64,000 nucleotides of DNA from an uncultured bacterium (GCA_963735925.1 CAVTMT010000003.1:1767463-1831462), one strand, 5' to 3'. Counted from the stretch's first letter, positions 5,864 to 63,678 are shown. Notes: generated from the sequence alone by a model not told the origin. Translations and numbers: made by a program.

Positions 5864-6526
5864 ATGAAACGAATTCGAAGGTGGTCGGCCTTTACGTTGA
5901 TCGAACTGCTGGTCGTCATCGCCATCATCGCCATTCTCGCGGGATTGCTGCTTCCCGCGCTGGCACGCGCCAAGGCGCAGGCCAAAAACGTCAACTGCAT
6001 CAACAACGTCCGGCAGACCAGCCTCGGTTTCCGCCTCTGGGCGCACGACAATGCCGACAAGTATCCCTGGAACCTGAGCGTCGCGCAGGGGGGCAGCGGC
6101 GGTTCGGCCGACTGGACCGACAACTTCCGCCTGTGCTCGAACGAGTTCGCCACGCCGCTGATCCTCCATTGCCCGGCGGACCGCGCGACCAAGCCGGGCA
6201 CCAACTGGACCTTTCTCGCAGCCGACACCAGTGTGAGCTATTTCATCAGCACGAACTCCAGCGAGAACCTCCCGGAGTCGATCCTGCTGGGCGACCGAAA
6301 CGTCATCGGCGGCGGCGGCGGGCTCGATCCGTCCTGGAGTGTGTTCCTGGGCAGTTCGATCGACGCCGCGTGGGACAAGGATATCCACGTTCGCGCGGGC
6401 AATCTGGGCATGGCCGACGGCAGCACACGCTCCTGCACGACCCCGGCCTTGCGCACGTTGATCAGCGCCGAACTGGCGGCCGGGTTGACCAACGTGGTGT
6501 TCTCCAAACCGCGCGGCATTTTTTGA
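5864..6526 (+). CDS. DUF1559 (H-X9-DG) protein with prepilin-type N-terminal cleavage/methylation domain
   Basis: [51 protein letters not shown] is the canonical PVC pseudopilin-like N-terminus. The C-terminal motif is [13 protein letters not shown]. The ATG at 5864 was confirmed in sequence. Confidence 0.85.
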
Positions 6527-6791
6527 CGACCTCACGCACCCAGGTCCGAGGCGCAAGGCCCTCAACCGACGCGTTCCCGCCCATGAACAGACGGCCAGAC
6601 GTTTGAACCGAAAACCGCAGATGCACGCCAATGAACGCAGCGAAGACCGACGCAGTAAGCATTTCGAGTGACCGGACCGGGTGCATCCCCCGGGTGAACC
6701 CACCCGCGACGGCGAACCGTTTCCTCTCTGCGTTGATCCGGGCCCATCTGCGGGCCAACTGCGCGATTTGGGTTGAACCGTTAACCCCGAC

Positions 6792-7454
6792 GTGAGGAGC
6801 AGCAAACTCATCAACGCAGTCGCCGGCCTCGCCATCGTCGGGTCCGCGGCCTGGCTCTGGGTCGCCGTGAACGGGTGGCCGCCCAGTCCTGAAGCCAGGC
6901 CGGCCGAAGCCTCCGGTTGGGGGATGGCGAAGGAAGCCCTGCGGGCGCTCAAGCCCGGCGGCCGGCTCGTCGTGATCGTCCGCGACACCGAGGCCTTCAA
7001 GCACCCCGAAACCGACCTCCAGTTGCGCAGCTTCGAGCAGGCCGTACACCAGGCCGGAGTCACCATCGGCGCCACCCGGACGCTGCAAGTCGATCCGTTG
7101 CGCGCACTGGAAGTACCCGGCGGCGATTTCTACGAGTTGATCCGCCGTGCGCCGACTGGAAGCGTGATCGTGTCGTTCATGGGACCGCCGATCTTGACCG
7201 CGGATCAGCGCGCGCGATTGAGCGATCCCAAACCTCCCATCATCGCTTTCTGCCCCGGCGCCTTGCCCCAGCAGATCGATCTCCGCGTGCTCTTCGCCGA
7301 GGGCCTGTTGCGCGCGGCTGTGATCAGCCGCGGGACGCCCGCTCGCCCCGCCACCCCGCCGAAGGACTCCAACGGCTGGTTCGACCGGTATTACCGCATC
7401 ATCACGGCCGCCGACGTCGCCAACCTGTACGAGCCGACCAGCGGCTCGCCTTGA
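6792..7454 (+). CDS. hypothetical membrane-anchored protein
   Basis: N-terminal TM (LINAVAGLAIVGSAAWLWVAV) and high GC3 coding bias. It sits 10 nt upstream of the next gene and no family is recognised. Confidence 0.55.
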   Translation: MRSSKLINAVAGLAIVGSAAWLWVAVNGWPPSPEARPAEASGWGMAKEALRALKPGGRLVVIVRDTEAFKHPETDLQLRSFEQAVHQAGVTIGATRTLQVDPLRALEVPGGDFYELIRRAPTGSVIVSFMGPPILTADQRARLSDPKPPIIAFCPGALPQQIDLRVLFAEGLLRAAVISRGTPARPATPPKDSNGWFDRYYRIITAADVANLYEPTSGSP

Positions 7455-10600: not shown

Positions 10601-13600
10601 TCAGAGCTTGACCCGATAGAACTTGGCGCCGCCGGCGGGAGTCGCCGTGTAACTCGGCGCGCTGGCGCCGGTCACCGTGGACCATGGCCCGGTAACGGCA
10701 TCCGCCGATTCCAGCGTGCCGTTCGACCACTCGATGACCACGTTGCTACCGGACTTCTGAATCTGCATGGTCACCTGTGTCGGGGCCGTGGTGTCGAAAC
10801 TGCGCCCGTAATCCTGGCCGACGATGTAGATCGCCTGCGCGTCGTAGTCGGTGAGCACGCTGCGCCAGATGCCGAGGTCGTCGATCTGCGCCGTCCCCGG
10901 TTCGGCATAGCTTCCCCCGGCCTGGCCGATGGTCCACGTCAGCGCGGTGCGAAGATCCCAACTGACGGCGGTCGCGATCGAGGTGGCGTTCACCTTGACG
11001 CCATCCAGGTAGGTGGTGCCGTCACCCGTGCGGTCGAAGATATGCACCAGGTGATGCCAGGTGCCGTCATTGAGCGTGTTTTGCACGGGGTCGTAAAGCC
11101 CGACCCCCGGCCAAGGTTGCGAGGTGATCGAGTCGTTCAGCCCCCAGGACCAGCCGCCCTGGTTGTACGACGGCGCGAGCGTGACGCCCGGGCCGCCCAT
11201 CGAACCCGTGTTGTTGGCCAGGAAGGGCAGGTCGCCCGGGCTGCCGGTGAACTTGATCCAGAAGGCCACGGAGAAGCTCTGACCCGGCCCGAAGTCCAGG
11301 TCCGACGGCGTGCCCAGCGACACGTAATTCGCCGCGGAGACGCTTCCCCCCTCGACCACGGTGCTGTATTGCAGGGCACCGGTGCCGATCTTCCCGGTCA
11401 CGATTTGCGGCGAGCCTTCGGCCGTGCCGTTGTTATTGCGGCCCGAACTGTCCAGATAATTGCCGTCGAACTTGAGGTGCAGCACGAGGTTGTCCGCCAG
11501 GTTCAGGTAACTCGGGACCGGCTTGACCGTGAGCGTCACGGGCGTGGTCGAAACCTTGGTTGCCCCTTGGGTCACGAACAACTGGTAACTGCCCGTGTCC
11601 GCGACGGTCGCGCTCGGGAACACCAGGCTGCTGCGAATCGCCCCGGGCAGATCCTGACCATCCTTCTGCCACTGGTAGGTCAACGGCAGCGTGCCGCTCG
11701 CCTTGGCGCTCAGGGTATAGCTGGACCCGGCCAGGATGGTCTGTCCCTTCGGCTGCTGCGCGATCTGAACCGGCGTGGTCACGTAGGTCCCCTTCACGCC
11801 GGCATCGTGCAGCTTCGTGATCTCCGCCTGCGACAAGGAGCGGTCATAGATCACCACGTCGTCGATCGCGCCTTTGAAGAAGCGAGACCCATTGCCGTCG
11901 GTGCCGAAACGCAGCGTGCCATCGAACTCCTCGGCGTTGTGATTGACGGTGTTGACCCCGTACTGCATCCCGAAGCCCTGACCGTCGTCGAGGTAGATCG
12001 TGGCCTGATCGGGTTCGACCACGAGCGCAACGAAGTTCCAGTTTCCGTCCGCCGGGTAGAGCCCGGAAGCCCAGCCGTAGGTGTTGGCGGCGTCATTCCA
12101 GTGGTACCCCAACTGGCCGCCGGTCTGGTAATCCAGACCCGCGACCGTGTTGCCGCCACGGCTGAACACGATCCCGTCGTAATCGTCGGGAGTCCCGTTC
12201 GGCTTGATCCAGGCCACGATCGTCAGATTCGCCTTGTTCAGGTTCAGCGGCGGAACGTCCACCTCGCCGCCGCCGCCGTTGAAGTCATACGCGGTGTTGC
12301 CCGCGTCGAAGCCCTGGAAGGCCGTCGGCACCGGACCGGCCACCCCCAGGGTGACGCCGGCATTGGCCACGCCGTCGCGACCGCCCCAGTAATCGTAGGC
12401 CGTGGTGCCCTCGGTTTCGTCCAGGCGCCAGTACCCAATCGGCCCCAGGTCGGCCGCCGCCGCGGCCAGCTTGGTGGGCGTCTTCAGCGTCAGCGTGGCG
12501 GTCACATTCGTGCTGCCGTACTGGTTGGAGACGACCACGGTGTAATCGCCGGCGTCGGCCGGTTGCAGATCGCTCACCACCAAAGTCGGTGCGGTGGCCC
12601 CGGCGATGGCGTCGGCCCCGTGTTTCCATTGATACGCGATCGGCTGGCTGCCCAGGGCGGCTGTCACGAACTGCACCGTGCCATTCAAGAACCGGACGGC
12701 CGAGGAGGGCACCTTCGTGAGGACCGGGGGCGAGGTGACGACTTCGAGGTGGTTCGCGGCGCTGGTCAGCGTCTTTCCCCCGGTGGTGGCTTCCACCGAA
12801 TAGTCTCCGCTGTCCGCCGTGGTCACGTTCGCGAGTTGCAGCGTCGCGGCGGTCTCGCCCGCGATGGGCGTTCCGCCTTTGAGCCATCGATACGTGACCG
12901 GCGCGGGGCCGGCCACGGTCGTCTGGAAGGTGACGTTCATGCCTTCGTAAACCGGGTCCGCGGTCCGCGTGAGCGACAAGATTCCCGGGATGGCGGCGTT
13001 GTAGAGCGAAGCGATTTGGTCGTAGGTCAAGGTTTTGTCGAACATCGCGAATTCATCGATGCTGCCGCGGAAGACGCGCGTCGTCTGGTAGTTATCCCAC
13101 CCGATCTCGAGGCTGGTGCCGCTGAAGTCGTGGGGAATATTCGCGAACACGTTCGTGGCGGCCTGCAGTCCGGCGGCGCTGCCCATGAAGAGGACGCCGT
13201 TGTCCGGCGAGATGGTGACGGCCACGAACGTCCAGGCCTGGTCGGGCGGCACGAAGCCGGGGTTGAAGTTGTAGGCACTGCCCTGGTCCTCCCAGTTGTA
13301 GCTCAGGCCCAGGCCGTCGTCCTGAAAGCCGAGCCCGGTGGCCTTGACTTCCGGGGCGCTCACCTTGCGGTTGTGCATGATCGCCGCGCGCGCCGGCTGC
13401 TTGCCGTCCCGCTTGATCCAGCAGACTATCGTGGCGGTGTCGGTGTTCAGGTTGAGGCCCGGAATGCTCACCGAACCGTTGGTGCCGTTGAAGCCGGCCG
13501 CGTTGTTCGTGCTCTCGAAACCGGTAACCGCCGGGCTCTGCGGCCCCGGGATCGCCGACTGGGTCCCGGCGAGGAACAGGCCGTCCGCCGCCGTCCCGTA

Positions 13601-54505: not shown

Positions 54506-55528
54506 TCAGCGCCGGTTGCCCCCTTCGGGCACGACCGTCAGCGGTCCCAGACCCGGACTGTCCAGCAACTGGCGCCGGCTCCGCGTGGTGACGGCGTACT
54601 GGAACGACTGGCCGGCGGAGGCGGACCCGAAGCGGCCGTGCCGGTCCAAGGCCACGAAGCTCACACTCAGGGCCGTGCCTTTCGGATCCTGTCGGGCCAT
54701 TCGGCGCAAGGCCTCCATGCAAGCCGCAGCCGGATGCAAGCCCTGGCGCATCAACTCCACCACCAGAAACGAACCGCAGTAGCGCATGATGTTTTCGCCC
54801 AGACCGGTGGCCCCGGCGGCGCCGACCTCATTATCGACGTAAAGGCCGCTGCCGACGATGGGCGAATCGCCCACGCGCCCCGGCAATTTGCCCGCCCAAC
54901 CGCTGGTGGAGCAACCGCCGGCGATTTCGCCGCCCGCCGCCAGCACGAGCAGCGCGATGGTGTCGTGATTGTCCGCGGCCTTTTTGGTTTCGCCCGCCGC
55001 CTGCCTTTCCGCCATCCGCTTCCGATGCCAGGCCTCGTTGCGCGCGGCGGAATCGATCGGGACGGACTCGAGGCCCTCTTCGAGGGCGAACAACCGGGCG
55101 CCTTCGCCGGCCAGCATGACATGCGGCGTCCTTTCCATCACCCGCCTCGCGGCCGAGATCGGATGCCGGATGCCTTCGAGGGCCGCCACGCTGCCCGCCC
55201 GGTGGCCCGGACCGGCCATGATGCACGAGTCCAGTTGCACGACGCCCGCGGCGTTGGGCAGCCCGCTGAGACCGACCGACCGGTTGTCGGACGATTCCAC
55301 TGCGCGGATGCCTTGTTCGACGGCGTCGAGCGGCGACCCGCCGGCGAGGAGCGTCTTGAGCGCCTCATCGTTGGCGGCCTGGCCGAACGGCCAGGTGGAA
55401 ACGATCAGCGGTTGCTCGCCGGCGCCCGCATCCGTTGCCGATTCCGCGCCCCGGAGGGCGGTCCAGGTGGAGGTTCCGGCGGTGACGAGGGCGGTCCGCA
55501 TGACGAAGGTGCGTCGATTTGTCTTCAT
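54506..55528 (-). CDS. isoaspartyl peptidase/L-asparaginase (Ntn-hydrolase, plant-type asparaginase family), TAT/periplasmic
   Basis: NRRTFVMRTALVTAG signal, then …HDTIALLVL… and GTGLGENIMRY, the autoproteolytic Thr-nucleophile family pattern. Confidence 0.85.
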   Translation of the reverse strand: MKTNRRTFVMRTALVTAGTSTWTALRGAESATDAGAGEQPLIVSTWPFGQAANDEALKTLLAGGSPLDAVEQGIRAVESSDNRSVGLSGLPNAAGVVQLDSCIMAGPGHRAGSVAALEGIRHPISAARRVMERTPHVMLAGEGARLFALEEGLESVPIDSAARNEAWHRKRMAERQAAGETKKAADNHDTIALLVLAAGGEIAGGCSTSGWAGKLPGRVGDSPIVGSGLYVDNEVGAAGATGLGENIMRYCGSFLVVELMRQGLHPAAACMEALRRMARQDPKGTALSVSFVALDRHGRFGSASAGQSFQYAVTTRSRRQLLDSPGLGPLTVVPEGGNRR

Positions 55529-55531
55529 CGC

Positions 55532-56767
55532 CTATTTGAGGCTCCAGAGCGTCAGCGAATCCTGGTCCCGGATGAACAAGCGACGGTCGGAGACGACGGG
55601 TTGCGCATAGGTGTCGGAGTTCGCCACCTTGTAAGCCGCCAGTTTCTTGAACTCCTTTTCGTCGGGAGCGAACACGGTCAGTTCCTGCTGTGGCGTCAGG
55701 GCCATCAGCACCGGACCCGCCGCCACGATGGACCCAAAGTCGCGTCCGCCCAGCGGCGAGGTCCAGAGCGTCTTGCCGTCCTGCGCATTCAAGCAGAAGA
55801 GCGTGCCGTTCTGCGCCAGACCGTACAGCGCGCCCCCAACCCGCACCGGCGTGTTGAACTGAACGGCGTTGTCCGGATTGCTCCAGAGCTCCCGGACCGT
55901 GAAGCCATCGCCGGTCTTCTCGATCTTGATCGCCTTGGTGCCGCGACCCGAACCGGCGCAGACGATCGTGTCGCCGTCCACGATGGGCGTGGCGGCGTTG
56001 TAGGCCCGGCCGGGGGGCGCGAACGCCGACTCCCAAAGCAGCTTGCCGTCCGCGAGACCCAGCCCGACGACCTTGTTGGCGGTCAGGGCCACTACCATCT
56101 TGGTCCCGGCGATGGTGGCCGGCACCGGGGAGGCGTAAGCGGTGCCGTCATCGGTCCATTGCCACTTGGTATCGCCGGTGGCCAGATCGTAAGCGACGAC
56201 CCCGCCCTTCTTCTCTCCGCCGAGTTGCGCGATGCACCGGCCTTCGGCAACCATCGGCGAGGAGGACGTAAAGAAGCGCGGCCAGTTGTCCTTAAAGTCA
56301 TCCTTCCGCCAGACCACCTTGCCGGTGGCGGCATCCAGGCACGACAACGTCCCGCGCACGCCGTACGTCAGCACCTTGCCGTCAAGGACGGCCGGCGAAC
56401 TCCGCGGCCCCGGATGACGCCCCATGGGTTCGGCCGCGGGCAACGCGTCGTACGAGTCGCGCCAGACTTGCTTGCCCGTCGCCGCGTCGAGACAAAGCGT
56501 GATCTCGCCCGCATCGTCCCGGGAAAAGACGTAGATTCGGTCGCCTACCAGGGCGGGCGTGGCGTCGCCTCGGCCCACGGGGACCTTCCATTTCTGGGTG
56601 AGTTCCTTCGGCCAGGTGGCGGGTGCTTCAAAACCCGCGGCTTGGTCATCCCGGTTGGGGCCGCGCCACTGGGGCCAGTCGCCGGCGACCAGTTGGGTGG
56701 CAACGGACAGCAGCAGGGCGGCCGCGGACATGGCGAGCGCGCGGGGAAACAGGGCGATTCGTTTCAT
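55532..56767 (-). CDS. PQQ-like beta-propeller repeat protein (BamB/PQQ-enzyme-repeat family), secreted
   Basis: Signal peptide, then repeated …G.V.A.DA.TGK..W… blades (LCLDAATGKQVWR; SCLDAATGKVVWR; AYDLATGDTKWQW; GLGLADGKLLWE; FCLNAQDGKTLWT). Confidence 0.8.
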   Translation of the reverse strand: MKRIALFPRALAMSAAALLLSVATQLVAGDWPQWRGPNRDDQAAGFEAPATWPKELTQKWKVPVGRGDATPALVGDRIYVFSRDDAGEITLCLDAATGKQVWRDSYDALPAAEPMGRHPGPRSSPAVLDGKVLTYGVRGTLSCLDAATGKVVWRKDDFKDNWPRFFTSSSPMVAEGRCIAQLGGEKKGGVVAYDLATGDTKWQWTDDGTAYASPVPATIAGTKMVVALTANKVVGLGLADGKLLWESAFAPPGRAYNAATPIVDGDTIVCAGSGRGTKAIKIEKTGDGFTVRELWSNPDNAVQFNTPVRVGGALYGLAQNGTLFCLNAQDGKTLWTSPLGGRDFGSIVAAGPVLMALTPQQELTVFAPDEKEFKKLAAYKVANSDTYAQPVVSDRRLFIRDQDSLTLWSLK

Positions 56768-56969
56768 GGCATCAACGAGTTGGAATTCTGATCACGGTCA
56801 TGGACCCGAGTTTCGGTGACGGTGGGAAGTATGGCACGCTTGCGGGCGCGCGTCGAGCACGCCAATGCAAACCGTTTCGAGGCAGCTACTCGAGCCGCCC
56901 CGGCTGCGGACCGGGCCGGCCGCCGCCGGCGATAGTGACCGCCCGGCGCGTGGCGGCTTGAATCCCGCC

Positions 56970-57537
56970 ATGACACCAAAGCCATTCCAGATTTCGCGAC
57001 GCTCGTTCCTCCGAGACTGCACCCTCACCGCCGCGGCCACGGGCCTGCCGCTCTGGTTCGTGGAACGTGAACTCGCCGCGGCCACGCCCGCCGCCGGGCC
57101 CTCGGGGCCGAACGACCGCCCGGGCATCGGTCTCGTCGGCCGCATCGGCAGGCTGGAACAGATCACCGTCTTCCCGCCGGCGGGGTTGCACGGTGGTCCC
57201 TTTCCCAGCCGGCCGGTCCCGTATGGGCTGAACTGAGATTACTGGCTCGGCCAAGGCTCTCCGGGTCGATTACGTGAAGGAGCGCTGTCACACGTCGTTT
57301 CGCTGTTGGCTCGCTTACTCCGGCGGCACGATGACCGACTGGGGCGCGCACCATAATGACATCGCCCGCTGGGCGCTCGGTCAGGAAGGACCGACGGCCT
57401 TCGAACCCAGGGTGCTGGTCGAGCCCATCCCCGGCGGCTACACCGCGATCAGCGAATACGAAGCGACTTTCTCCTGGACCTGCGGTGTGCCGCTTGTCGC
57501 CAGAACCACCCGGGACGACAACATTTTCGGCGCGTGA
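56970..57537 (+). pseudogene. Gfo/Idh/MocA-family oxidoreductase remnant (TAT-signal N-terminus plus an internal fragment; most of the gene deleted)
   Basis: ORF 56970..57236 has MTPKPFQISRRSFLRDCTLTAAATGLP…GIGLVG (twin-arginine signal plus the start of a Rossmann fold). ORF 57274..57537 has TDWGAHHNDIARWALG (Gfo/Idh/MocA C-domain motif). Together they give about 190 aa against roughly 400 aa for an intact member. Confidence 0.5.
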
Positions 57538-57688
57538 GCCACCCGGTCGCGATGCGGTGGTTCAGGCCCTCCGCTTCCGAGCGGATTCCCACTCGTCCAA
57601 CACGGAGAAGAAGCCCGGGGCCGCCGCGTCGTTCGGGTAGGCGTGAGGCGAAGGTCTTCGCGACCTCCGCCTCACGAGTGCCGGACAA

Positions 57689-58225
57689 TCAGGCCTTGGG
57701 AATCAACACGGTGTCGATGACGTGAATGACCCCGTTCCCAGCCGTCACGTCAGTCTTCACCACTTTGGCGTTGTCCACCGTGACGCCCGCAGCCGAGACC
57801 ACCAGTTGCAGGCTCTGCCCCTGAACGGTCTTGACGTCCATCGTCTTGACATCCGCCGCCATGACTTTACCGGCCAGGACGTGGTACTTGAGGATGGCCA
57901 CCAGCTTGTCGTGGTTCTCCGGCCTGAGCAGGTCCTCCACGATGCCGGCAGGCAGCTTGGCGAAGGCCGCATCGGTAGGGGCGAACACCGTGAACGGTCC
58001 CTGGCCCTGGAGCAAATCCACCAGACCCGCCGCCTTGACGGCCGCGACGAGGGTCTTGAAGTTGTCCGCGCCGGCGGCGACGGCGACGATGTCCTTGCCC
58101 GCCGGACAGGTGGCGGCGGTGGCGTCCTGGCCGGCGCTGCACGCACCCGCGATGAGGCCGGGGGTGAGGGTGAGGGTGAGGGCCGCGGCGAGGGCGGCCA
58201 CCGGGAGGAGACGGTTCCTTTTCAT
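57689..58225 (-). CDS. fasciclin (FAS1) domain protein, secreted/lipoprotein
   Basis: Signal peptide with a Cys ([10 protein letters not shown]). FAS1 motifs [28 protein letters not shown] and [11 protein letters not shown]. Confidence 0.85.
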
Positions 58226-58418
58226 GCTCGAGTTCTTGGTTTCGGGTTTTCGTTTTCTCGCTTCAACTGCCGGTCGTCGGCGGCCGAACGTGTCGAACAG
58301 TTGTCTAAGAATCGTGCAACGTCAAATGCCGGTCGAAAATATTCCCGACCGTTGCCCCAGCGGCTCTTTGCCCGACATGCCTGGCGACTGCGATTTGGGG
58401 CTTGTGCGCCGGGTCCGA

Positions 58419-58436
58419 TTGTGTAGGACTTGTGTA
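58419..58436. promoter_or_regulatory. two 11-bp-phased direct repeats (TTGTGTA-N4-TTGTGTA) 5-22 nt upstream of the MerR/B12 regulator start; candidate operator
   Basis: gaTTGTGTAggacTTGTGTAagtaATG read directly. CarH-type regulators are known to bind tandem 11-bp direct repeats. Confidence 0.3.
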
Positions 58437-58440
58437 AGTA

Positions 58441-59385
58441 ATGCCTGACGCGCAATACCCCATTCAGTTGGTGGCCCGCTTCACCGGCTTGAGCGCCCAT
58501 GTCATCCGGATCTGGGAGCAGCGCTACCGCGCCGTCCAGCCGAGCCGGACCGCGGGCAATCGTCGCCTTTATTCGCCGCGCGACCTCGAACGGCTCAACC
58601 TGCTGCGGGACCTGACCCGCGCCGGCCACAGCATCGGCCAGGTCGCCCCGTTGCCGACCGACCGACTGCGCAGGCTCGTCACCGCAGCCCCCCACATTCC
58701 GGACGGCGCCGCGCGCTCGGCGACCGGGGCGTCGGCCACCGGCTCCCTTCTCGACGCGTGCGTGGCGGCCGTCAAATCGCTCGACGCCCCCGCCTTGGAC
58801 GGGGCACTCCAGCGCGGCGCGACCGCGCTGGGCTCCCTGGGATTGCTGCAACGCGTCGTCGCGCCACTGGCGCAAACCGTCGGCGACTTGTGGCGCGAGG
58901 GCACGCTCACGGCCGCCCACGAACACTTCGCCAGCGCGGCGATTCGGGTCTTTCTCGGGCAGGCGGCCAGACCGTTCGGTGCGGTGGACACGGCGCCCAT
59001 CCTGGTGGTGGCCACGCCGGCGGGGCAGGTGCATGAACTGGGCGCGCTGCTGGTCGGAGCCATGGCGGCGAACCTGGGCTGGCAGGTCACCTACCTGGGC
59101 GCGAGTCTGCCGGCCGCGGAAATTGCGGGGGCGGCGCGACAGGCGCGGGCGCGGGCCGTCGCCTTGAGTCTGGTGTATCCGGAAGACGACCCCCATACGG
59201 CAATCGAATTGACACGGCTGCGCGGGTTGCTGCCCGCGGAGATGGCGCTGCTGGTCGGCGGGCGCGCCATGCCGGCGTACCGCGAGGCGCTGGAGAAGTC
59301 CGGCGCGGTTCCCCTGGCCGACCTTGTGCAACTGGGCTCCACCCTGGACCATCTCCGCCGGCCCGCCGGCAAGGCCAGACGATGA
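58441..59385 (+). CDS. MerR-family transcriptional regulator with C-terminal cobalamin (B12)-binding domain (CarH/LitR-like)
   Basis: N-terminal MerR HTH (IQLVARFTGLSAHVIRIWEQRY…RLYSPRDLERLNLL). C-terminal Rossmann B12-binding region with ILVVATPAGQVHELGALLV (xHxxG) and …SLVYPED…. Confidence 0.8.
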   Translation: MPDAQYPIQLVARFTGLSAHVIRIWEQRYRAVQPSRTAGNRRLYSPRDLERLNLLRDLTRAGHSIGQVAPLPTDRLRRLVTAAPHIPDGAARSATGASATGSLLDACVAAVKSLDAPALDGALQRGATALGSLGLLQRVVAPLAQTVGDLWREGTLTAAHEHFASAAIRVFLGQAARPFGAVDTAPILVVATPAGQVHELGALLVGAMAANLGWQVTYLGASLPAAEIAGAARQARARAVALSLVYPEDDPHTAIELTRLRGLLPAEMALLVGGRAMPAYREALEKSGAVPLADLVQLGSTLDHLRRPAGKARR

Positions 59386-59591
59386 AACCTCGCTTTACGC
59401 GCAATCTGGACAACCGGGGCCGGCTCTTCCGCGGCCTGGGGGCGCTGGGACTGTTGGTGGGTGCGGGATTCGGCTTCTGCGAGTCCGTATGGCTGGGGGC
59501 GGGGTTGGCGGCGGCGGGGGGATTCGTGTTGTTCGAAGCTCTGCGCGGTTGGTGCGTGCTGCGCGCCTGCGGCATCAAGACCCGGCTCTGA
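59382..59591 (+). CDS. DUF2892 (YgaP-like) small membrane protein
   Basis: NLDNRGRLFRGLGALGLLVGAG…LFEALRGWCVLRACGIKTR fits the DUF2892 pattern (..DR..R…G…GW CP …G). Its ATG overlaps the regulator stop (ATGA at 59382-59385). Confidence 0.6.
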   Translation: MKPRFTRNLDNRGRLFRGLGALGLLVGAGFGFCESVWLGAGLAAAGGFVLFEALRGWCVLRACGIKTRL

Positions 59592-59603
59592 GCCATCTCC
59601 CCG

Positions 59604-60110
59604 ATGCGCGAATTCACATTCCAGACCGAGCTTTGGCTGCCCCGCCCCCGCGGCGACGTGTTCCCCTTCTTTGCCGAAGCGCGGAACCTCGAGACGATCA
59701 CGCCCCCCTGGTTGAATTTTGAGGTATTGACGCCCGCGCCCATTGCCCTACGCCCCGGGGCGCTCATTGACTACCGGATCCGGGTCCACGGATGGCCGCT
59801 CCGCTGGCGCACGGAAATCACCGCGTGGGAACCGCCCCATCGCTTCGTTGACGTCCAGCTTCGCGGCCCCTACACGCTGTGGCATCACGCGCACACCTTC
59901 GAGGACCGCGACGGCGGCACCCTCTGCCGGGACGACGTGCGCTATCGCCCGCGCGGTGGGGCGTTGGTCCACTGGCTCTTTGTGCGGCGCGACGTCCAAC
60001 GCATATTCGCCTATCGACAGCGGCGGCTGAGGGAGCTTTTCGGCCCCACGCCAAACGGGCGTCGCGCGCCTCCCGGAGCGGAATCTGCGGATCCCAGGAG
60101 CCGCCCTTGA
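59604..60110 (+). CDS. SRPBCC-family protein (polyketide cyclase/dehydrase / START-like ligand-binding fold)
   Basis: MREFTFQTELWLPRPRGDVFPFFAEARNLETITPPW…YRIRVHGWPLRWRTEITAWEPPHRFVDVQLRGPYTLWHHAHTFE is the typical SRPBCC pattern. Confidence 0.7.
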   Translation: MREFTFQTELWLPRPRGDVFPFFAEARNLETITPPWLNFEVLTPAPIALRPGALIDYRIRVHGWPLRWRTEITAWEPPHRFVDVQLRGPYTLWHHAHTFEDRDGGTLCRDDVRYRPRGGALVHWLFVRRDVQRIFAYRQRRLRELFGPTPNGRRAPPGAESADPRSRP

Positions 60111-60173
60111 GGGTGGCGTCGGGGCTGAATCGCGCGGGCTTCCGGGCGCTCGCAGCCGCGCCGGCATCCCCGG

Positions 60174-60884
60174 TCAGCCGGCGAAATACCCCAGCTCGCG
60201 CAACGACGCGAAGTCCTTGTCGCGGGCCTGCGTCCGGCGTCCCAGGATGACGTGGTCGAGCACGTCGATGCGGAGCAACTGCCCGGCGCGGATCAGATCG
60301 CGGGTGACCTTGATGTCGGCCTCACTGGGCGTGGGATCGCCCGAGGGGTGGTTGTGGACGAGCACGATAGCGGCGGCGTTCGCGGCGATGGCGGCTTTGA
60401 ACACCTCCCGGGGGTGGACCAGGATCGAGTCAAGTGTGCCTTGGGAAACCGGCTCCACGCGGATCAAGCGCCGGCGGGTGTTGAGCAGGATCACACGGAA
60501 CTGTTCCACCTCGTGGAAGCGGCAGTCTTCCCGCAGGTAGTTCGCCACCTGCTCGGGGGTTTCCATGGGGGGCGATTCGCCGTGGATTTCGCGGGCCATG
60601 CGCTGGGCGAGGGTGAAGGCGGCCTTGAGCATGACCGCCTTGTCCGGGCCCAGGCCCCGCACGGCGCCCAGTTCTTCCGGCTTGGCCCGGGCCAGCGCGT
60701 CGATGCTGCCGTATTGCTTCAACAACTGCCGCGCGGCGTCGAGCGCCGAGACGCCCCGGGTGCCGCTGCGCAGGAGAATGGCGATCAACTCGTCGGTCCC
60801 GAGCGCGTCGGCGCCTTTGGCCAGCAAGCGCTCGCGGGGACGATCACCGGGCGGCAGGTCCTTGATCCGAACCGTCTCGGGCAT
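60174..60884 (-). CDS. radC: RadC-family JAB/MPN-domain protein (UPF0758)
   Basis: N-terminal HhH (LLAKGADALGTDELIAILLRSGTRGVSALDAARQLL) and JAMM motif HNHPSGDPTPSEAD. The start MPETVRIK… is confirmed at 60884. The upstream 243 codons of ORF 60174..61613 are treated as non-coding. Confidence 0.88.
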   Translation of the reverse strand: MPETVRIKDLPPGDRPRERLLAKGADALGTDELIAILLRSGTRGVSALDAARQLLKQYGSIDALARAKPEELGAVRGLGPDKAVMLKAAFTLAQRMAREIHGESPPMETPEQVANYLREDCRFHEVEQFRVILLNTRRRLIRVEPVSQGTLDSILVHPREVFKAAIAANAAAIVLVHNHPSGDPTPSEADIKVTRDLIRAGQLLRIDVLDHVILGRRTQARDKDFASLRELGYFAG

Positions 60885-60996
60885 GCGGCGAGAATGCCGC
60901 AAACGGCCGCCGGATTCAAACCGAAAGACCGGCCGGGCGCCGGAGCGCGAGCGCCGGGGATTGCCGCGCGCGGTCGCGCCGCCTACCTTTCGCGCC

Positions 60997-63678
60997 ATGC
61001 ACAACTCCTCGAAGTTGCCCCGCTGGGCGACGCTGTTGACGATGGTCGCGTGGCTCGCCCTTGCGGCGCGCGGGGACAAAGCAGTGGCTGCAACCAGCCT
61101 CGGACGGCTGACCTCGCGGGCCCCGACCGACTCGCCTGAACACCGCAAGTACGCACCGGTCCGCGAGGTGGACATCCGGCACATTGCCATCGACCTCACC
61201 CCGGATTTCAAGGCCCGCAGCCTCGCGGCCACGACGGAGGTGAAGTTCAAGCCGCTCGCCGATGGACTGCGCGAATTGAAGCTCGACGCGGTGGCGCTCC
61301 GCGTCGTCTCGGTCACCGGCACCGAACCCATCCAGGCCTGGCAGAACACGGACGACCGGATCATTGTGACCTTCGCGCAAGCGCTCCCGGTGGACCGCGA
61401 GACCGCCGTCACCGTGCAGTACACGGCCGAGCCCACCGCCGGCCTGTACTTCCGCACGCCGGAGATGGGGTATCGCGACGGCGACACCCACCTGTTCACG
61501 CAGGGCGAGTCGATCACCGCACGAAACTGGTTTCCGTGCTTCGACGCGCCGAACGACAAGTTCACTTCCGAAGTCACCTGCCACGTTCCCGAGGGCATGA
61601 CGGCCATCGCCAACGGCAGACTTGCTTCCGAGTCCCAGGATGTGGCCAGCGGCCTGGTCGCCTTTCGCTGGGTCCAGGAACAGCCGCACAGCAGTTACCT
61701 GATCGCGCTGGCGGCGGGCTATTTCCGGAAGCTGGAGGACGCTTACCGGGGCATTCCGCTGACATTCTACACGCCGCCGTCGGAGTTCGCGCACGCGCAG
61801 AGTTCGTTCGCGGGCACCAAGGACATGCTGGCGTACTTCGAGGAGGAGACGGGCACGCCTTACCCGTGGGCCAAGTACGCCCAGGTCTGCGTGAACGATT
61901 TCGTGGCCGGCGGCATGGAAAACACGTCGCTCACCATCCTTACGGACAACACCCTGTTTCCGCCCGAGACGCAGAACCTGCGCAGCAGTGAAGGCCTGGT
62001 GTCGCACGAACTGGCGCACCAGTGGTTCGGCGACCTGGTCACCTGCAAGGATTGGACGCACCTTTGGCTGAACGAAGGTTTTGCCAGTTACTACGAGGCG
62101 CTTTACGACGGCCACCGGCATGGGCGCGACGCGTTCCTCTACAATTTGTGGCACAAAGCCCGGAACGTGCTCGATCAGGCCAACGACATCCGGCCCATCG
62201 CCTGGCGCGGATTCGACCAGCCCGACGAGCAGTTCAGCTATCTTGCCTATCCGAAAGGCGCCTGGGTCCTGCACATGCTCCGCTGCCAGCTCGGCGAAGC
62301 GCTGTACCGCCGCTGCATCCAGACCTACCTCGCGCGCCACGCCTACGGCAACGTGGTGACCGATGATCTGAACGCGGTCGTCTCGGAGCTCTCCGGCCGC
62401 TCGTTCGACCAGTTCTTCGACCAGTGGGTGTACCACGCGCACCACCCCGAGTTGGAGGTCGGCTACTCCTGGGACGAGCAAACCCGGCTGGCGAAACTCA
62501 ACGTCAAGCAGGTCCAATTGCTCAGCGAAAACGTCCTGCTCTTCAACTTCCCGCTGCCCGTTCGCTTCAAGACCAAGGCCGGCCTCGTGGACCGCACCTT
62601 GACCGTGAAGGCCAAGGACGAGGACTTCTACGTCGCGTTGCCCGCGGCGCCGGAAACCGTGCGGATCGACCCGGACCTGACCGTGCTGGCGAAGATCCGG
62701 TTCTCGCCGCCGCAGGACCTGCTCCTCGCGCAACTCGCGGACGCGACCGACATGCCCGGCCGCCTGCTCGCCGTGGAGGCGCTGAGCGGTCGCCAAGACA
62801 ACGAGTCCATCGCGAAGCTCAAGCAGGTTCTGAACCGGGACGCGTTTTACGGCGTACGGATCGAAGCCGCGAAGGCGCTCCGCGCCAGCCACACCGACGA
62901 AGCCCTCGACGCACTGCTGGCTTCAACCAACCAGCCCGACGCCCGCGTTCGCCAGCAAGTCTGCGCCGACGTGGCCGGCTTCTACCGAGCAACCGCGCTG
63001 GAGACCGCGCGCGCCACGCTCGCCTCGGAGAGAAACCCGGACGTGCTGGTCGAAGCGATTCGGGCGTTGGGGCCGTACGGCTCCGCCGACACCCGCGAAA
63101 CGTTGCTCCGCTTCCTCGCGACCGATTCGTTCCGCAATGTGCTCGCCGATGCCGCCATCGGGGCGATGCGCGCCCAGGACGATCCGGTCTTCATCCAGCC
63201 GTTGCTGGCGGCGCTGCAGGAGCGGGAGACCGCGTTCACCAGCGGCGACTTTGGCCAGGCCCTCGGCGCCCTCGCCTACCTGGCGCGAAACGAGGAGAAG
63301 AAGGAAACGGTGCGCGAATTCCTGGTGCGCCAGACCGGTTCGCCCCGGCGGCGCGTCCAGCGGGCGGCCATCGCCGCGCTCGGGAGCTTGGGCGATCCAA
63401 AGGCCATCGCCGTCCTCCGGACTTTCGCCAGCGCGGCCAAGGACAGCCCGGAACGCAAGGCCGCCGAGAAGGCGATCGCCGATCTTCGCGCCGACAGGAA
63501 GCCGTCCGACGACCTGCGCGATTTGCGTGACGAGGTCGCCGGACTTCAAAGGGAAAACCGCGAACTTCGCCGGAGCGTGGACGACTTGAAGAAGCAGTTC
63601 ACGGCGGTGACGGTGAACTCCAGCCCGGAGAAAGCGGCCAAAACGAAGAAGCGGGCGAAGAAGAGCCGGAAGCACTGA
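60997..63678 (+). CDS. M1-family aminopeptidase N-like protein with C-terminal HEAT repeats and Lys-rich tail (893 aa)
   Basis: GGMENT exopeptidase motif and HELAHQWFGDLVTCKDWTHLWLNEGFASY (HExxH-x18-E), with a signal/anchor (WATLLTMVAWLALAA). The C-terminal HEAT-like repeats end …KAAKTKKRAKKSRKH. The ATG at 60997 was confirmed. Confidence 0.9.
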   Translation: MHNSSKLPRWATLLTMVAWLALAARGDKAVAATSLGRLTSRAPTDSPEHRKYAPVREVDIRHIAIDLTPDFKARSLAATTEVKFKPLADGLRELKLDAVALRVVSVTGTEPIQAWQNTDDRIIVTFAQALPVDRETAVTVQYTAEPTAGLYFRTPEMGYRDGDTHLFTQGESITARNWFPCFDAPNDKFTSEVTCHVPEGMTAIANGRLASESQDVASGLVAFRWVQEQPHSSYLIALAAGYFRKLEDAYRGIPLTFYTPPSEFAHAQSSFAGTKDMLAYFEEETGTPYPWAKYAQVCVNDFVAGGMENTSLTILTDNTLFPPETQNLRSSEGLVSHELAHQWFGDLVTCKDWTHLWLNEGFASYYEALYDGHRHGRDAFLYNLWHKARNVLDQANDIRPIAWRGFDQPDEQFSYLAYPKGAWVLHMLRCQLGEALYRRCIQTYLARHAYGNVVTDDLNAVVSELSGRSFDQFFDQWVYHAHHPELEVGYSWDEQTRLAKLNVKQVQLLSENVLLFNFPLPVRFKTKAGLVDRTLTVKAKDEDFYVALPAAPETVRIDPDLTVLAKIRFSPPQDLLLAQLADATDMPGRLLAVEALSGRQDNESIAKLKQVLNRDAFYGVRIEAAKALRASHTDEALDALLASTNQPDARVRQQVCADVAGFYRATALETARATLASERNPDVLVEAIRALGPYGSADTRETLLRFLATDSFRNVLADAAIGAMRAQDDPVFIQPLLAALQERETAFTSGDFGQALGALAYLARNEEKKETVREFLVRQTGSPRRRVQRAAIAALGSLGDPKAIAVLRTFASAAKDSPERKAAEKAIADLRADRKPSDDLRDLRDEVAGLQRENRELRRSVDDLKKQFTAVTVNSSPEKAAKTKKRAKKSRKH

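Follow-up and report, generated by a model that had tools for sequence, protein, structure and literature searches.

A CarH-like regulator gene and a divergent fasciclin gene flanking two predicted direct-repeat operators in an uncultured bacterium

A stretch of 64,000 nt from an uncultured bacterium (GCA_963735925.1 CAVTMT010000003.1:1767463-1831462, one strand; hereafter the window) was analysed with the focus on the gene module at 57689-60110, in which a CarH-like regulator gene is followed by genes for a DUF2892-type membrane protein and an SRPBCC protein, and a fasciclin gene is divergently oriented. The sequence of the regulator identifies it as a distant member of class I of the LitR/CarH family of adenosylcobalamin (AdoCbl)-type photoreceptor-repressors. 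Two arrays of 11-bp direct repeats of the CarH type are situated in the region between the regulator and fasciclin genes, and both are conserved in related genomes. The explanation that we consider probable for the whole module is that an AdoCbl-bound class I LitR/CarH repressor acts on two operators and is released by light.

57689-58225, minus strand: fasciclin gene, 178 amino acids, secreted single-domain FAS1 protein (Pfam, 133.8 bits)
58226-58440: intergenic region shared by the fasciclin and carH genes, 215 bp
58441-59385, plus strand: carH-like regulator gene, 314 amino acids, with MerR winged-helix domain, four-helix bundle with Wx9EH and Rossmann B12-binding domain
59382-59591, plus strand: DUF2892/YgaP-like open reading frame (ORF), 69 amino acids, two-helix membrane protein; its ATG overlaps the carH TGA as ATGA
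59604-60110, plus strand: SRPBCC ORF, 168 amino acids, stand-alone Bet v 1/START-like protein (Pfam Polyketide_cyc)

CarH proteins form a class of B12-based photoreceptors and are used as tools in optogenetics and material science. The members characterised in detail come from Thermus, Bacillus and myxobacteria and control carotenoid genes; repression in the dark by the AdoCbl-bound form and release by light is their established mechanism (PMC9304148, PMC8156234). To compare the module with its relatives, a scan of one genome per species was used, which yielded 372 carH-encoding loci. The best 80 of them, almost all labelled Verrucomicrobiota, Limisphaerales or Pedosphaera, were used for synteny and operators (labels of the type L001). 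From these relatives, the window is assigned to a Limisphaerales/Pedosphaera-like member of the Verrucomicrobiota. As many of the contigs are short, the true numbers of neighbouring genes in these loci may be higher than the counts given here.

Domain structure and family of the regulator

An earlier note on this DNA, made from the sequence alone, had described a regulator with a MerR helix-turn-helix and a B12-binding Rossmann domain containing GQVHELG, and had proposed a profile search for both. The search found both domains, with Pfam matches to MerR_1 at residues 6-69 (E 1.3e-14), B12-binding_2 (3.2e-07) and B12-binding (PF02310) at residues 188-288 (4.7e-12); GQVHELG occupies residues 195-201. 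In a phmmer comparison with PDB sequences, the whole regulator aligned to Thermus thermophilus CarH/LitR (3whp, 5c8d) with E 2e-24. Searching a protein database with the regulator returned 2988 homologues at E<=1e-10 among 8000 candidates scored, with 68-100% identity among the 120 matches listed.

Published class I proteins are distinguished by the Wx9EH motif, which caps the adenosyl group, and by the Rossmann motif D/ExHx2G/Px41SxT/Vx22-27GG (PMC9304148, PMC8156234). In the window protein, the cap motif W151-x9-E161-H162 is aligned on W131/E141/H142 of the Thermus protein (TtCarH) and H198 on its lower axial ligand H177. The Rossmann module reads Q196-V-H198-E-L-G201-x41-S243-L-V245-x27-G273G274, with the His, Gly, SxV and GG elements correctly spaced and Gln at the acidic position. 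The C-terminal domain of the regulator therefore possesses the B12-binding residues that align with Thermus CarH (W151/E161/H162, H198, G201, S243, V245 and G273G274). The recognition helix R23-I-W-E-Q-R-Y29 differs from the published RxWERRY by replacement of one arginine with glutamine. The residues of the cap, the B12 motif and the recognition helix, including Gln196, were found to be invariant in 20 orthologues of 68-81% identity.

The predicted fold agrees with the motifs. An AlphaFold (AF2) model built on the orthologue alignment had a predicted local distance difference test score (pLDDT) of 80, and when it was compared with the PDB by Foldseek, the top 48 matches were all TtCarH/LitR at 28% identity. 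The cobalamin-binding domain of the model was superposed on that of TtCarH with a TM-score of ~0.8 and a root-mean-square deviation of ~3 A.

Two other members of the family were considered as identities for this protein. CarA is a B12-independent paralogue without the Wx9EH tryptophan (PMC9304148), and class II LitR is without the Rossmann B12 domain and works with a short LOV protein (PMC9758184). A CarA-like identity was ruled out as the tryptophan and the spacing of Wx9EH are intact in the regulator, whereas CarA loses the tryptophan and flanking residues. Class II LitR was ruled out by the presence of the B12-binding (PF02310) Rossmann module, whereas class II proteins keep only the four-helix bundle. 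Having both the tryptophan which CarA misses and the Rossmann module which class II misses, the regulator is therefore assigned, on its sequence features, to class I as a distant member.

Predicted proximal operator and putative carH promoter

The repeat arrays and the associated promoter-like elements of the intergenic region are as follows.

58419-58440, plus strand: predicted proximal operator, with the 11-bp direct repeats DR1 TTGTGTAGGAC and DR2 TTGTGTAAGTA in tandem; ends 1 nt before the carH ATG
58441-58451, plus strand: possible degenerate third repeat ATGCCTGACGC, over the carH start codon
58402-58407, plus strand: -35-like box TTGTGC of the putative carH promoter, a conserved block with orthologue consensus cTTGCa
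58290-58311, plus strand: strong half of the predicted distal operator, with DRa GTGTCGAACAG and DRb TTGTCTAAGAA oriented like the proximal repeats; situated 65 bp upstream of the fasciclin ATG
58312-58340, plus strand: degenerate half of the predicted distal operator, pseudo-repeats TCGTGCAA, CGTCAAATGCC and GGTCGAAAATA
58261-58289, minus strand: conserved stem-loop GUUCGGCC...GGCAGUUGAA, predicted 5' end of the fasciclin transcript, directly after the distal operator

Two copies of TTGTGTA are located at 58419-58425 and 58430-58436, that is at -22 to -5 from the carH ATG and in 11-bp register. The earlier note had pointed to this pair as CarH-type repeats, and it is real: it matches the CarH unit, and an equivalent pair is present at the same place in 75 of 78 orthologous loci. 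Only one further copy of TTGTGTA occurs in the 64 kb, and the 18-bp pattern of the pair, with 2 mismatches allowed, has a single occurrence against 0.01 expected. The operator unit of CarH is the 11-bp direct repeat 5'-nnnnTnnACAn-3' (PMC9304148). Each proximal repeat of the window carries a conserved A three bases after TGT, so TGTnnA on the plus strand reads TnnACA on the minus strand, which is the core of the published repeat.

Across the orthologues, TGT recurs at the exact 11-bp spacing in 74-77 of 78 sequences upstream of carH. The common layout on the 5' side of the gene is cTTGCa, about 12-15 nt, and then tTGTnnA-N4-tTGTcTA, which ends 4-6 nt from the ATG. DR1 and DR2, whose TTGTGTA motifs end 4 nt before the ATG in the window, occupy the position expected for the -10 element and the transcription start, which implies a nearly leaderless carH mRNA. 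A third repeat overlapping the start codon is suggestive only. Of 78 sequences, 42 have an anchoring offset of -21, and in these its TG keeps the 11-bp register; codon 2 of carH is NCT in 41 of 76 orthologues although the encoded amino acid varies.

Predicted distal operator, putative divergent promoter and fasciclin leader

As a description of the operators, the earlier account holds for the repeats it had seen and is incomplete, as a second array at 58290-58340 had been missed. A position weight matrix was trained on the proximal sites of other genomes, with the window excluded, and both strands of the window (128 kb) were scanned with it. The top score was obtained by the proximal site at 58419 (17.8 bits) and the second by the distal site at 58290 (17.6 bits), while Markov shuffles gave an expectation of 0.025 matches at >=15 bits per window. 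The third-best match, at 13024 (~10.7-10.8 bits), lies inside an ORF of >1300 amino acids and was dismissed as chance.

Of 75 orthologous loci, 68 contain a distal array; it is on the carH-sense strand in every case and usually 130-190 bp upstream of carH. When 795 kb of orthologous DNA was scanned on both strands, 203 matches reached >=14 bits, and all of them were on the carH-sense strand; 73 were proximal sites and 130 fell within 900 bp upstream of carH, with none elsewhere. The typical array, from the consensus of 62 loci, consists of three repeats, an 8-bp step and two more repeats.

On the fasciclin-sense strand, the fourth repeat of the distal array contains a near-invariant TTGACA resembling a -35 element, followed by 17 nt and then nAnnnT, and GTCAA is invariant in an intergenic alignment of 12 sequences. 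The equivalents in the window are TTGACG (58325-58320) and AACTGT (58302-58297), whose roles as promoter hexamers are putative. From their position, transcription of fasciclin is predicted to start at about 58290, which leaves 65 nt to the ATG. In loci with an expanded spacer (L027, L007 and L008) the distal array stays with the divergent gene and not with carH, and where crtI replaces the fasciclin gene it precedes crtI. The earlier note had read the module as a light- or B12-responsive regulon controlling a small hydrophobic-ligand-binding protein and a surface adhesion domain, and the TTGTGTA pair was the only array it had described. This pair is located at the putative promoter and the start codon of carH, with ~195 bp separating it from the fasciclin ATG, and control of the fasciclin gene is better explained by the array at 58290-58340.

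The stem-loop following the distal operator is present in most loci. Its outer stem GUUCA/UGAAC is conserved while the sequence of the inner stem differs between lineages. With a structure drawn manually for one class of 11 orthologues, 79% of cells were paired against 20-44% in slid controls, 8 of 13 pairs were changed on both sides (1 of 500 shuffles), and G.U pairs were found only on the fasciclin-sense strand. The manual count on a single class was adopted as the register of the inner helix varies from class to class, so that no consensus emerged when 29 hairpin sequences were folded with RNAalifold. The fold energy of the window's own 5' untranslated region is unexceptional (z -0.17).

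A conserved basic ORF of 40-50 amino acids (MKTKREHRKTNASVAQHRLIECRFAKPTHFAVVIQVH..., core C-R-F-x-x-P-x-x-F-x-V-x-V) was observed in 29 of the 80 related loci as the first ORF after the distal array and hairpin, ahead of fasciclin or crtI (for example L030 5783-5640 and L056 5782-5630, both minus strand). It belongs to no Pfam family, and in four loci it shares the reading frame of the fasciclin gene. This small leader ORF is absent from the window.

Conserved synteny and sister lineages

The arrangement described in the earlier note, with the regulator stop overlapping the start of the DUF2892 peptide (ATGA), an SRPBCC gene downstream and a fasciclin gene divergent across a 215-bp region, was confirmed in the window and recurs as conserved synteny. 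Among the 80 loci, carH is followed by DUF2892 in 44-48, usually through an identical 4-bp overlap, and carH/DUF2892 by SRPBCC in 32-38; in 43 loci the neighbour on the divergent side of carH is fasciclin. In the window, the carH unit ends with the SRPBCC gene, beyond which radC is encoded convergently. carH-DUF2892-SRPBCC together with the divergent fasciclin gene represents a recurrent cassette.

A crtI-like gene was found within 6 kb in 24 of the 80 loci. In ten of these, a crtI-like flavin amine oxidase gene represents the closest of the families mapped on the divergent side, in the order crtI-aldehyde dehydrogenase-crtI, and four loci show the order fasciclin-crtI-aldehyde dehydrogenase on the same strand. 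Judged from these arrangements, the same control region drives carotenoid-type crtI-aldehyde dehydrogenase-crtI genes in sister lineages, so the carH family is not separate from carotenogenesis. The statement of the earlier note that the regulon does not consist of carotenoid genes thus stands for the window, where tblastn with the crtI, aldehyde dehydrogenase, SDR and NmrA+DUF2867 proteins of relatives found none in 64 kb, and fails for the clade.

Other recurrent members, on both divergent strands, are an NmrA+DUF2867 oxidoreductase, an SDR, a PQQ-type beta-propeller and a short LOV-like protein of 160 amino acids. The cargo families swap between the two transcription units across genomes (for example L060, L069, L071 and L072), which suggests that they form one functional guild. 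Genes for the short LOV-like protein (160-170 amino acids) occur in the CarH-linked cluster of seven loci (L003, L007, L008, L042, L065, L067 and L069). For the example at L042 3936-4421 (minus strand), the best PDB match was the LOV domain of Bacillus subtilis YtvA (E 5.5e-17). The photoactive cysteine is replaced by proline (GKTPRILQG against GKNCRFLQG) in all five proteins that match the motif. In related loci this gene lies 3' of the fasciclin gene. In the window, 57571-57636 on the minus strand holds a 22-codon relic, PNDAAAPGFFSVLDEWESARKR, followed by a stop, which corresponds to the C-terminus of the LOV-like protein with 73-77% identity; with the relic and no intact ORF, the window lineage has therefore lost the LOV-like gene.

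Searching from the SRPBCC side added a few loci. L084 has an SDR gene divergent from carH-SRPBCC with both repeat arrays, and two loci contain SRPBCC alone with no repeats. In L081 (5164-6456), a CarH homologue of 204 amino acids has B12-binding_2 and B12-binding only and lacks the DNA-binding domain, yet genes for DUF2892 and SRPBCC still follow it. This module lies after a LysR gene and beside CIA30, TspO and CrtO genes, and it has no CarH-type repeats. The CIA30 gene (Pfam match, 6476-7075) adjoins the SRPBCC gene there. A secreted protein with a CIA30-like motif (VNDGVMGGVSK), and not fasciclin, is also encoded by the first divergent gene on the minus strand upstream of carH in L022, L046, L051 and L062.

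Cargo proteins

The fasciclin protein has a signal peptide, a conserved cysteine pair in the mature N-terminus and a full-length Fasciclin domain (E 4.9e-39). Its closest bacterial structure is Fdp of Rhodobacter sphaeroides (1w7d, E 5.5e-40), and overall it is most similar to the FAS1 domains of Fdp and TGFBIp, with AstaP weaker (9wm8, 9e-16; 8c18, 3e-11). The possibility that it is specifically AstaP-like was thus not backed by the sequence ranking. Its gene is followed by a strong hairpin, which is probably the end of the fasciclin transcript or a 3' stabiliser.

57642-57676, minus strand: hairpin of 15 bp after the fasciclin gene, 13 nt past the stop codon, without a U-tract

The folding energy of this hairpin is -36.2 kcal/mol (z -5.07) and 0 of 200 shuffles fold as well. 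No significant terminator-like structure was found 3' of the SRPBCC gene.

The 69-amino-acid ORF matches DUF2892/YgaP-like_TM (PF11127) only weakly, with 18.2 bits where the cut-off is 25.3. The protein has the two-helix layout typical of the family and a C-terminal RGWCxxRACGIKT which is conserved in 44 orthologues, and one of the orthologues also carries a weak precomputed DUF2892 match. The SRPBCC protein matches Polyketide_cyc (30.2 bits against a cut-off of 23.4, 6e-07), and its AF2 model (pLDDT 87) has a generic Bet v 1 fold. The fold search gave 330 PDB matches at E<=0.001, of which the 50 listed are generic Bet v 1/PYL/START-type proteins. The sole PDB sequence match is the N-terminal domain of Corynebacterium 3OH8, with a common W-x-H-x-H-x-F motif. 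The protein is 73-83% identical to 24 aligned orthologues, in which W93-x-H95-x-H97, C108 and D110 are invariant.

Proposed mechanism and alternative explanations

On the pattern of the characterised CarH proteins, the regulator would bind AdoCbl in the dark, with His198 as the lower axial ligand and the W151-x9-E161-H162 cap holding the adenosyl group. It would oligomerise, and its MerR-type heads would occupy the tandem 11-bp repeats. The proximal operator at 58419-58440, perhaps extending over the ATG, would cover the -10/start region of the nearly leaderless carH-DUF2892-SRPBCC transcript, and its occupancy would result in autorepression of the carH unit. The distal operator at 58290-58340 would span the divergent fasciclin promoter from its -35-like TTGACG across the spacer to its -10-like AACTGT, and the fasciclin mRNA would begin with the conserved 5' stem-loop. 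Near-UV to green light would cleave the Co-C bond, the oligomer would fall apart and both units would be transcribed. Promoter occlusion as the mode of repression, and the exact promoters, are drawn here by analogy.

Several observations weigh against this explanation. AdoCbl binding, light response and DNA binding of the regulator are all inferred from the characterised CarH proteins. The acidic residue of the D/ExHxxG motif is replaced by Gln196 throughout the clade. In the alignment, the salt bridge R176-D201 of the Thermus dimer corresponds to V197/S222, and His132, which forms the bis-His adduct of the Thermus light state, corresponds to R152. Because these equivalents are lost, the oligomeric state and the photoproduct of the regulator may differ from those of Thermus. 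Oligomeric states of CarH proteins are known to vary (PMC9304148), and these interface and photoproduct residues are not family-defining. The NCBIfam CarH equivalog NF052513 scores 106.8 bits against a cut-off of 400 bits, which places the regulator, by sequence score, outside the curated orthologous group as a distant member. Each operator of the window has only two strong repeats, against three in Thermus and four in Bacillus megaterium. The promoter hexamers of the window are poor, and the promoter roles given here are taken from conservation since a strict sigma-70 scan of 57500-60300 calls no promoter. Finally, no gene for B12 uptake or synthesis is visible within the 64-kb window, and an Rfam search of it detected two tRNAs only and no cobalamin riboswitch.

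The same facts can be arranged differently. If the regulator sensed B12 status and not light, AdoCbl would be a corepressor reporting cobalamin availability, and the targets would serve corrinoid or lipid handling. All the B12 motifs are present, the window is without a photolyase or carotenoid gene, and the homologue of L081, although devoid of a DNA-binding domain, is still linked to DUF2892 and SRPBCC, hinting at a B12-centred trio. We regard this as quite improbable, as the literature names Wx9EH as the hallmark of CarH photoreceptors (PMC8156234), AdoCbl bound in this way is inherently photolabile, and crtI-type and LOV-like genes lie under or beside the same control region in orthologous loci. 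It is decidedly unlikely that the regulator is B12-independent or partner-dependent in the manner of CarA or class II LitR, binding the repeats constitutively until released by an antirepressor or a photoactivated partner such as the short LOV-like protein. The Wx9EH tryptophan and the whole Rossmann module are intact and invariant, the LOV-like proteins are without the photoactive cysteine, and the window has lost the LOV-like gene yet keeps the regulator and both operators. What speaks for a partner is the glutamine in place of the acidic motif residue, the loss of the Thermus interface residues, the cysteine-less short LOV genes clustered with carH at seven orthologous loci with a relic in the window, and the known cooperation of class II LitR with short LOV proteins (PMC9758184).

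Both arrays could also serve the carH promoter, by cooperative binding or looping, with fasciclin as a mere neighbour having its own unregulated promoter. The distal array often lies at ~-157 from the carH ATG, the -10-like hexamer of fasciclin is weak in the window and no consensus promoter was called there. Such pure autoregulation appears very improbable in view of the related loci. In L027 the distal-type matches lie ~750-780 bp upstream of carH, just upstream of fasciclin, and there is no other non-proximal match of >=10 bits; L007 and L008 carry extra arrays nearer the fasciclin gene. The array contains the conserved fasciclin-sense TTGACA with its 17-nt spacer and nAnnnT, the stem-loop has G.U pairs on that strand only, and the same array heads crtI operons, which are classical CarH targets. 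Hardly credible, at last, is that the repeats belong to a different direct-repeat regulator, such as an OmpR/PhoB-type response regulator, and lie beside carH by coincidence. Pho-box-like sites are also built of 11-bp-phased TGTCA repeats. Yet nearly all 80 loci have the repeats together with carH, independently of the flanking genes, and no other part of these loci contains them; the locus in which the DNA-binding domain is missing (L081) has none. The A at the sixth position (TGTnnA = TnnACA) is conserved as in CarH sites, and the proximal pair reaches to within 4 nt of the ATG, where an activator site at -35 could not be placed.

Returning to light-released repression by a class I CarH protein, the combination of a periplasmic FAS1 protein, a cysteine-containing membrane protein and a histidine-rich SRPBCC protein most likely points, in view of its regulation and neighbours, to a light-stress or photoprotection response of the envelope and lipids. 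A bolder version, which we consider doubtful, is that fasciclin, DUF2892 and SRPBCC are working parts of the light response and not passengers. The FAS1 protein would then be a bacterial counterpart of AstaP, binding or shuttling the C30-type carotenoids of the crtI-aldehyde dehydrogenase-crtI genes which share its promoter in sister lineages, while the B12-binding domain, DUF2892 and SRPBCC would be a trio that persists without the DNA-binding domain, as in L081. If true, this would give the first functions for DUF2892 and this SRPBCC subfamily, and carotenoid binding by FAS1 outside green algae.

Comparison with known systems

The regulator shares with Thermus thermophilus CarH/LitR (5C8D, 5C8E, 3WHP; 28% identity) the three-module architecture, the fold, Wx9EH, the His-on ligand and the SxV...GG spacing. 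It differs in having Gln and not Glu before the ligand His, and in the lack of conservation of R176/D201 and H132. Tandem 11-bp nnnnTnnACAn repeats over a promoter element in a divergent intergenic region are likewise common to both, as a predicted operator here and as reported for Thermus (PMC9304148). The window has two such operators, each of two strong repeats plus pseudo-repeats, whereas Thermus has one with three repeats, and the neighbours are fasciclin, DUF2892 and SRPBCC in place of crtB and ldrP.

CarH proteins of B. megaterium and of myxobacteria (Myxococcus xanthus, Cystobacter and Sorangium) also depend on AdoCbl for repression, and in their operators full repeats (DR) are combined with pseudo-repeats (dr) over the -35 or -10 element. 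At Pcrt of M. xanthus, TTGACA lies within a repeat, as in the distal array described here, and in L. luteola the autoregulatory sites upstream of carH consist of two DRs and one dr (PMC9304148). Unlike these directly controlled carotenoid operons, carotenoid-type genes are divergent from carH only in sister lineages of the present clade. The Pseudomonas pair PmlR2/PmSB-LOV (class II LitR) resembles the module as a LitR-family repressor of a non-carotenoid light regulon with a short LOV-type gene, which is nearby in related loci here. The differences are that the Rossmann B12 module is kept, that proline replaces the photoactive cysteine in the LOV-like protein and that only the 22-codon relic of its gene is present in the window.

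AstaP and R. sphaeroides Fdp are secreted single-FAS1-domain proteins as is the fasciclin protein, which is closer to Fdp/TGFBIp (5.5e-40 for Fdp) than to AstaP (1e-15 to 3e-11). AstaP is an algal FAS1 protein that is induced by photo-oxidative stress and binds carotenoids. Its authors regard carotenoid binding as an algal innovation; a cyanobacterial homologue does not bind, and prediction from sequence is not yet possible (PMC10147662). The Corynebacterium protein 3OH8 is an SRPBCC domain fused to a YfcH-type epimerase. It shares the W-x-H-x-H-x-F motif with the SRPBCC protein of the window, which unlike it is stand-alone with 168 amino acids; beside this likeness, NmrA+DUF2867 oxidoreductases recur in the related loci.

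The regulator type, the repeat unit and the regulatory logic are known already. Literature searches revealed no report of CarH in Verrucomicrobia, nor of this two-operator layout or the fasciclin/DUF2892/SRPBCC cargo, and none of the papers listed by them contained both LitR and SRPBCC. The locus documents a large and coherent Verrucomicrobiota CarH clade (372 loci in species-representative genomes) with a clean and predictable two-operator control region. Its cargo is variable and includes fasciclin, DUF2892, SRPBCC, the cysteine-less LOV-like protein, NmrA+DUF2867, the small basic peptide and crtI-aldehyde dehydrogenase-crtI. If light control is true, the region would be a compact natural bidirectional light switch, and several function-less families would gain a testable context in the envelope light-stress response of non-phototrophic freshwater and soil bacteria.

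Flanking genes of the window

The flanks at 54506-56767 (minus strand) and 60174-63678 appear unrelated to the module. They contain genes for an asparaginase_2, a PQQ/BamB-like beta-propeller, a convergent RadC-like JAB protein and an M1 aminopeptidase with HEAT repeats. A PQQ/BamB-like beta-propeller gene also recurs 3' of the fasciclin gene in ~11 related loci. Because of the high GC content, the window displays many long spurious antisense ORFs. Between the fasciclin and PQQ beta-propeller genes, two short ORFs at 56865-57537 (plus strand) resemble a single gene that has been split in two. A twin-arginine-like signal (RRSFLRDC...) is present in one and weak GFO_IDH_MocA C-terminal matches in the other, and from these similarities the region is probably a Gfo/Idh/MocA oxidoreductase pseudogene.

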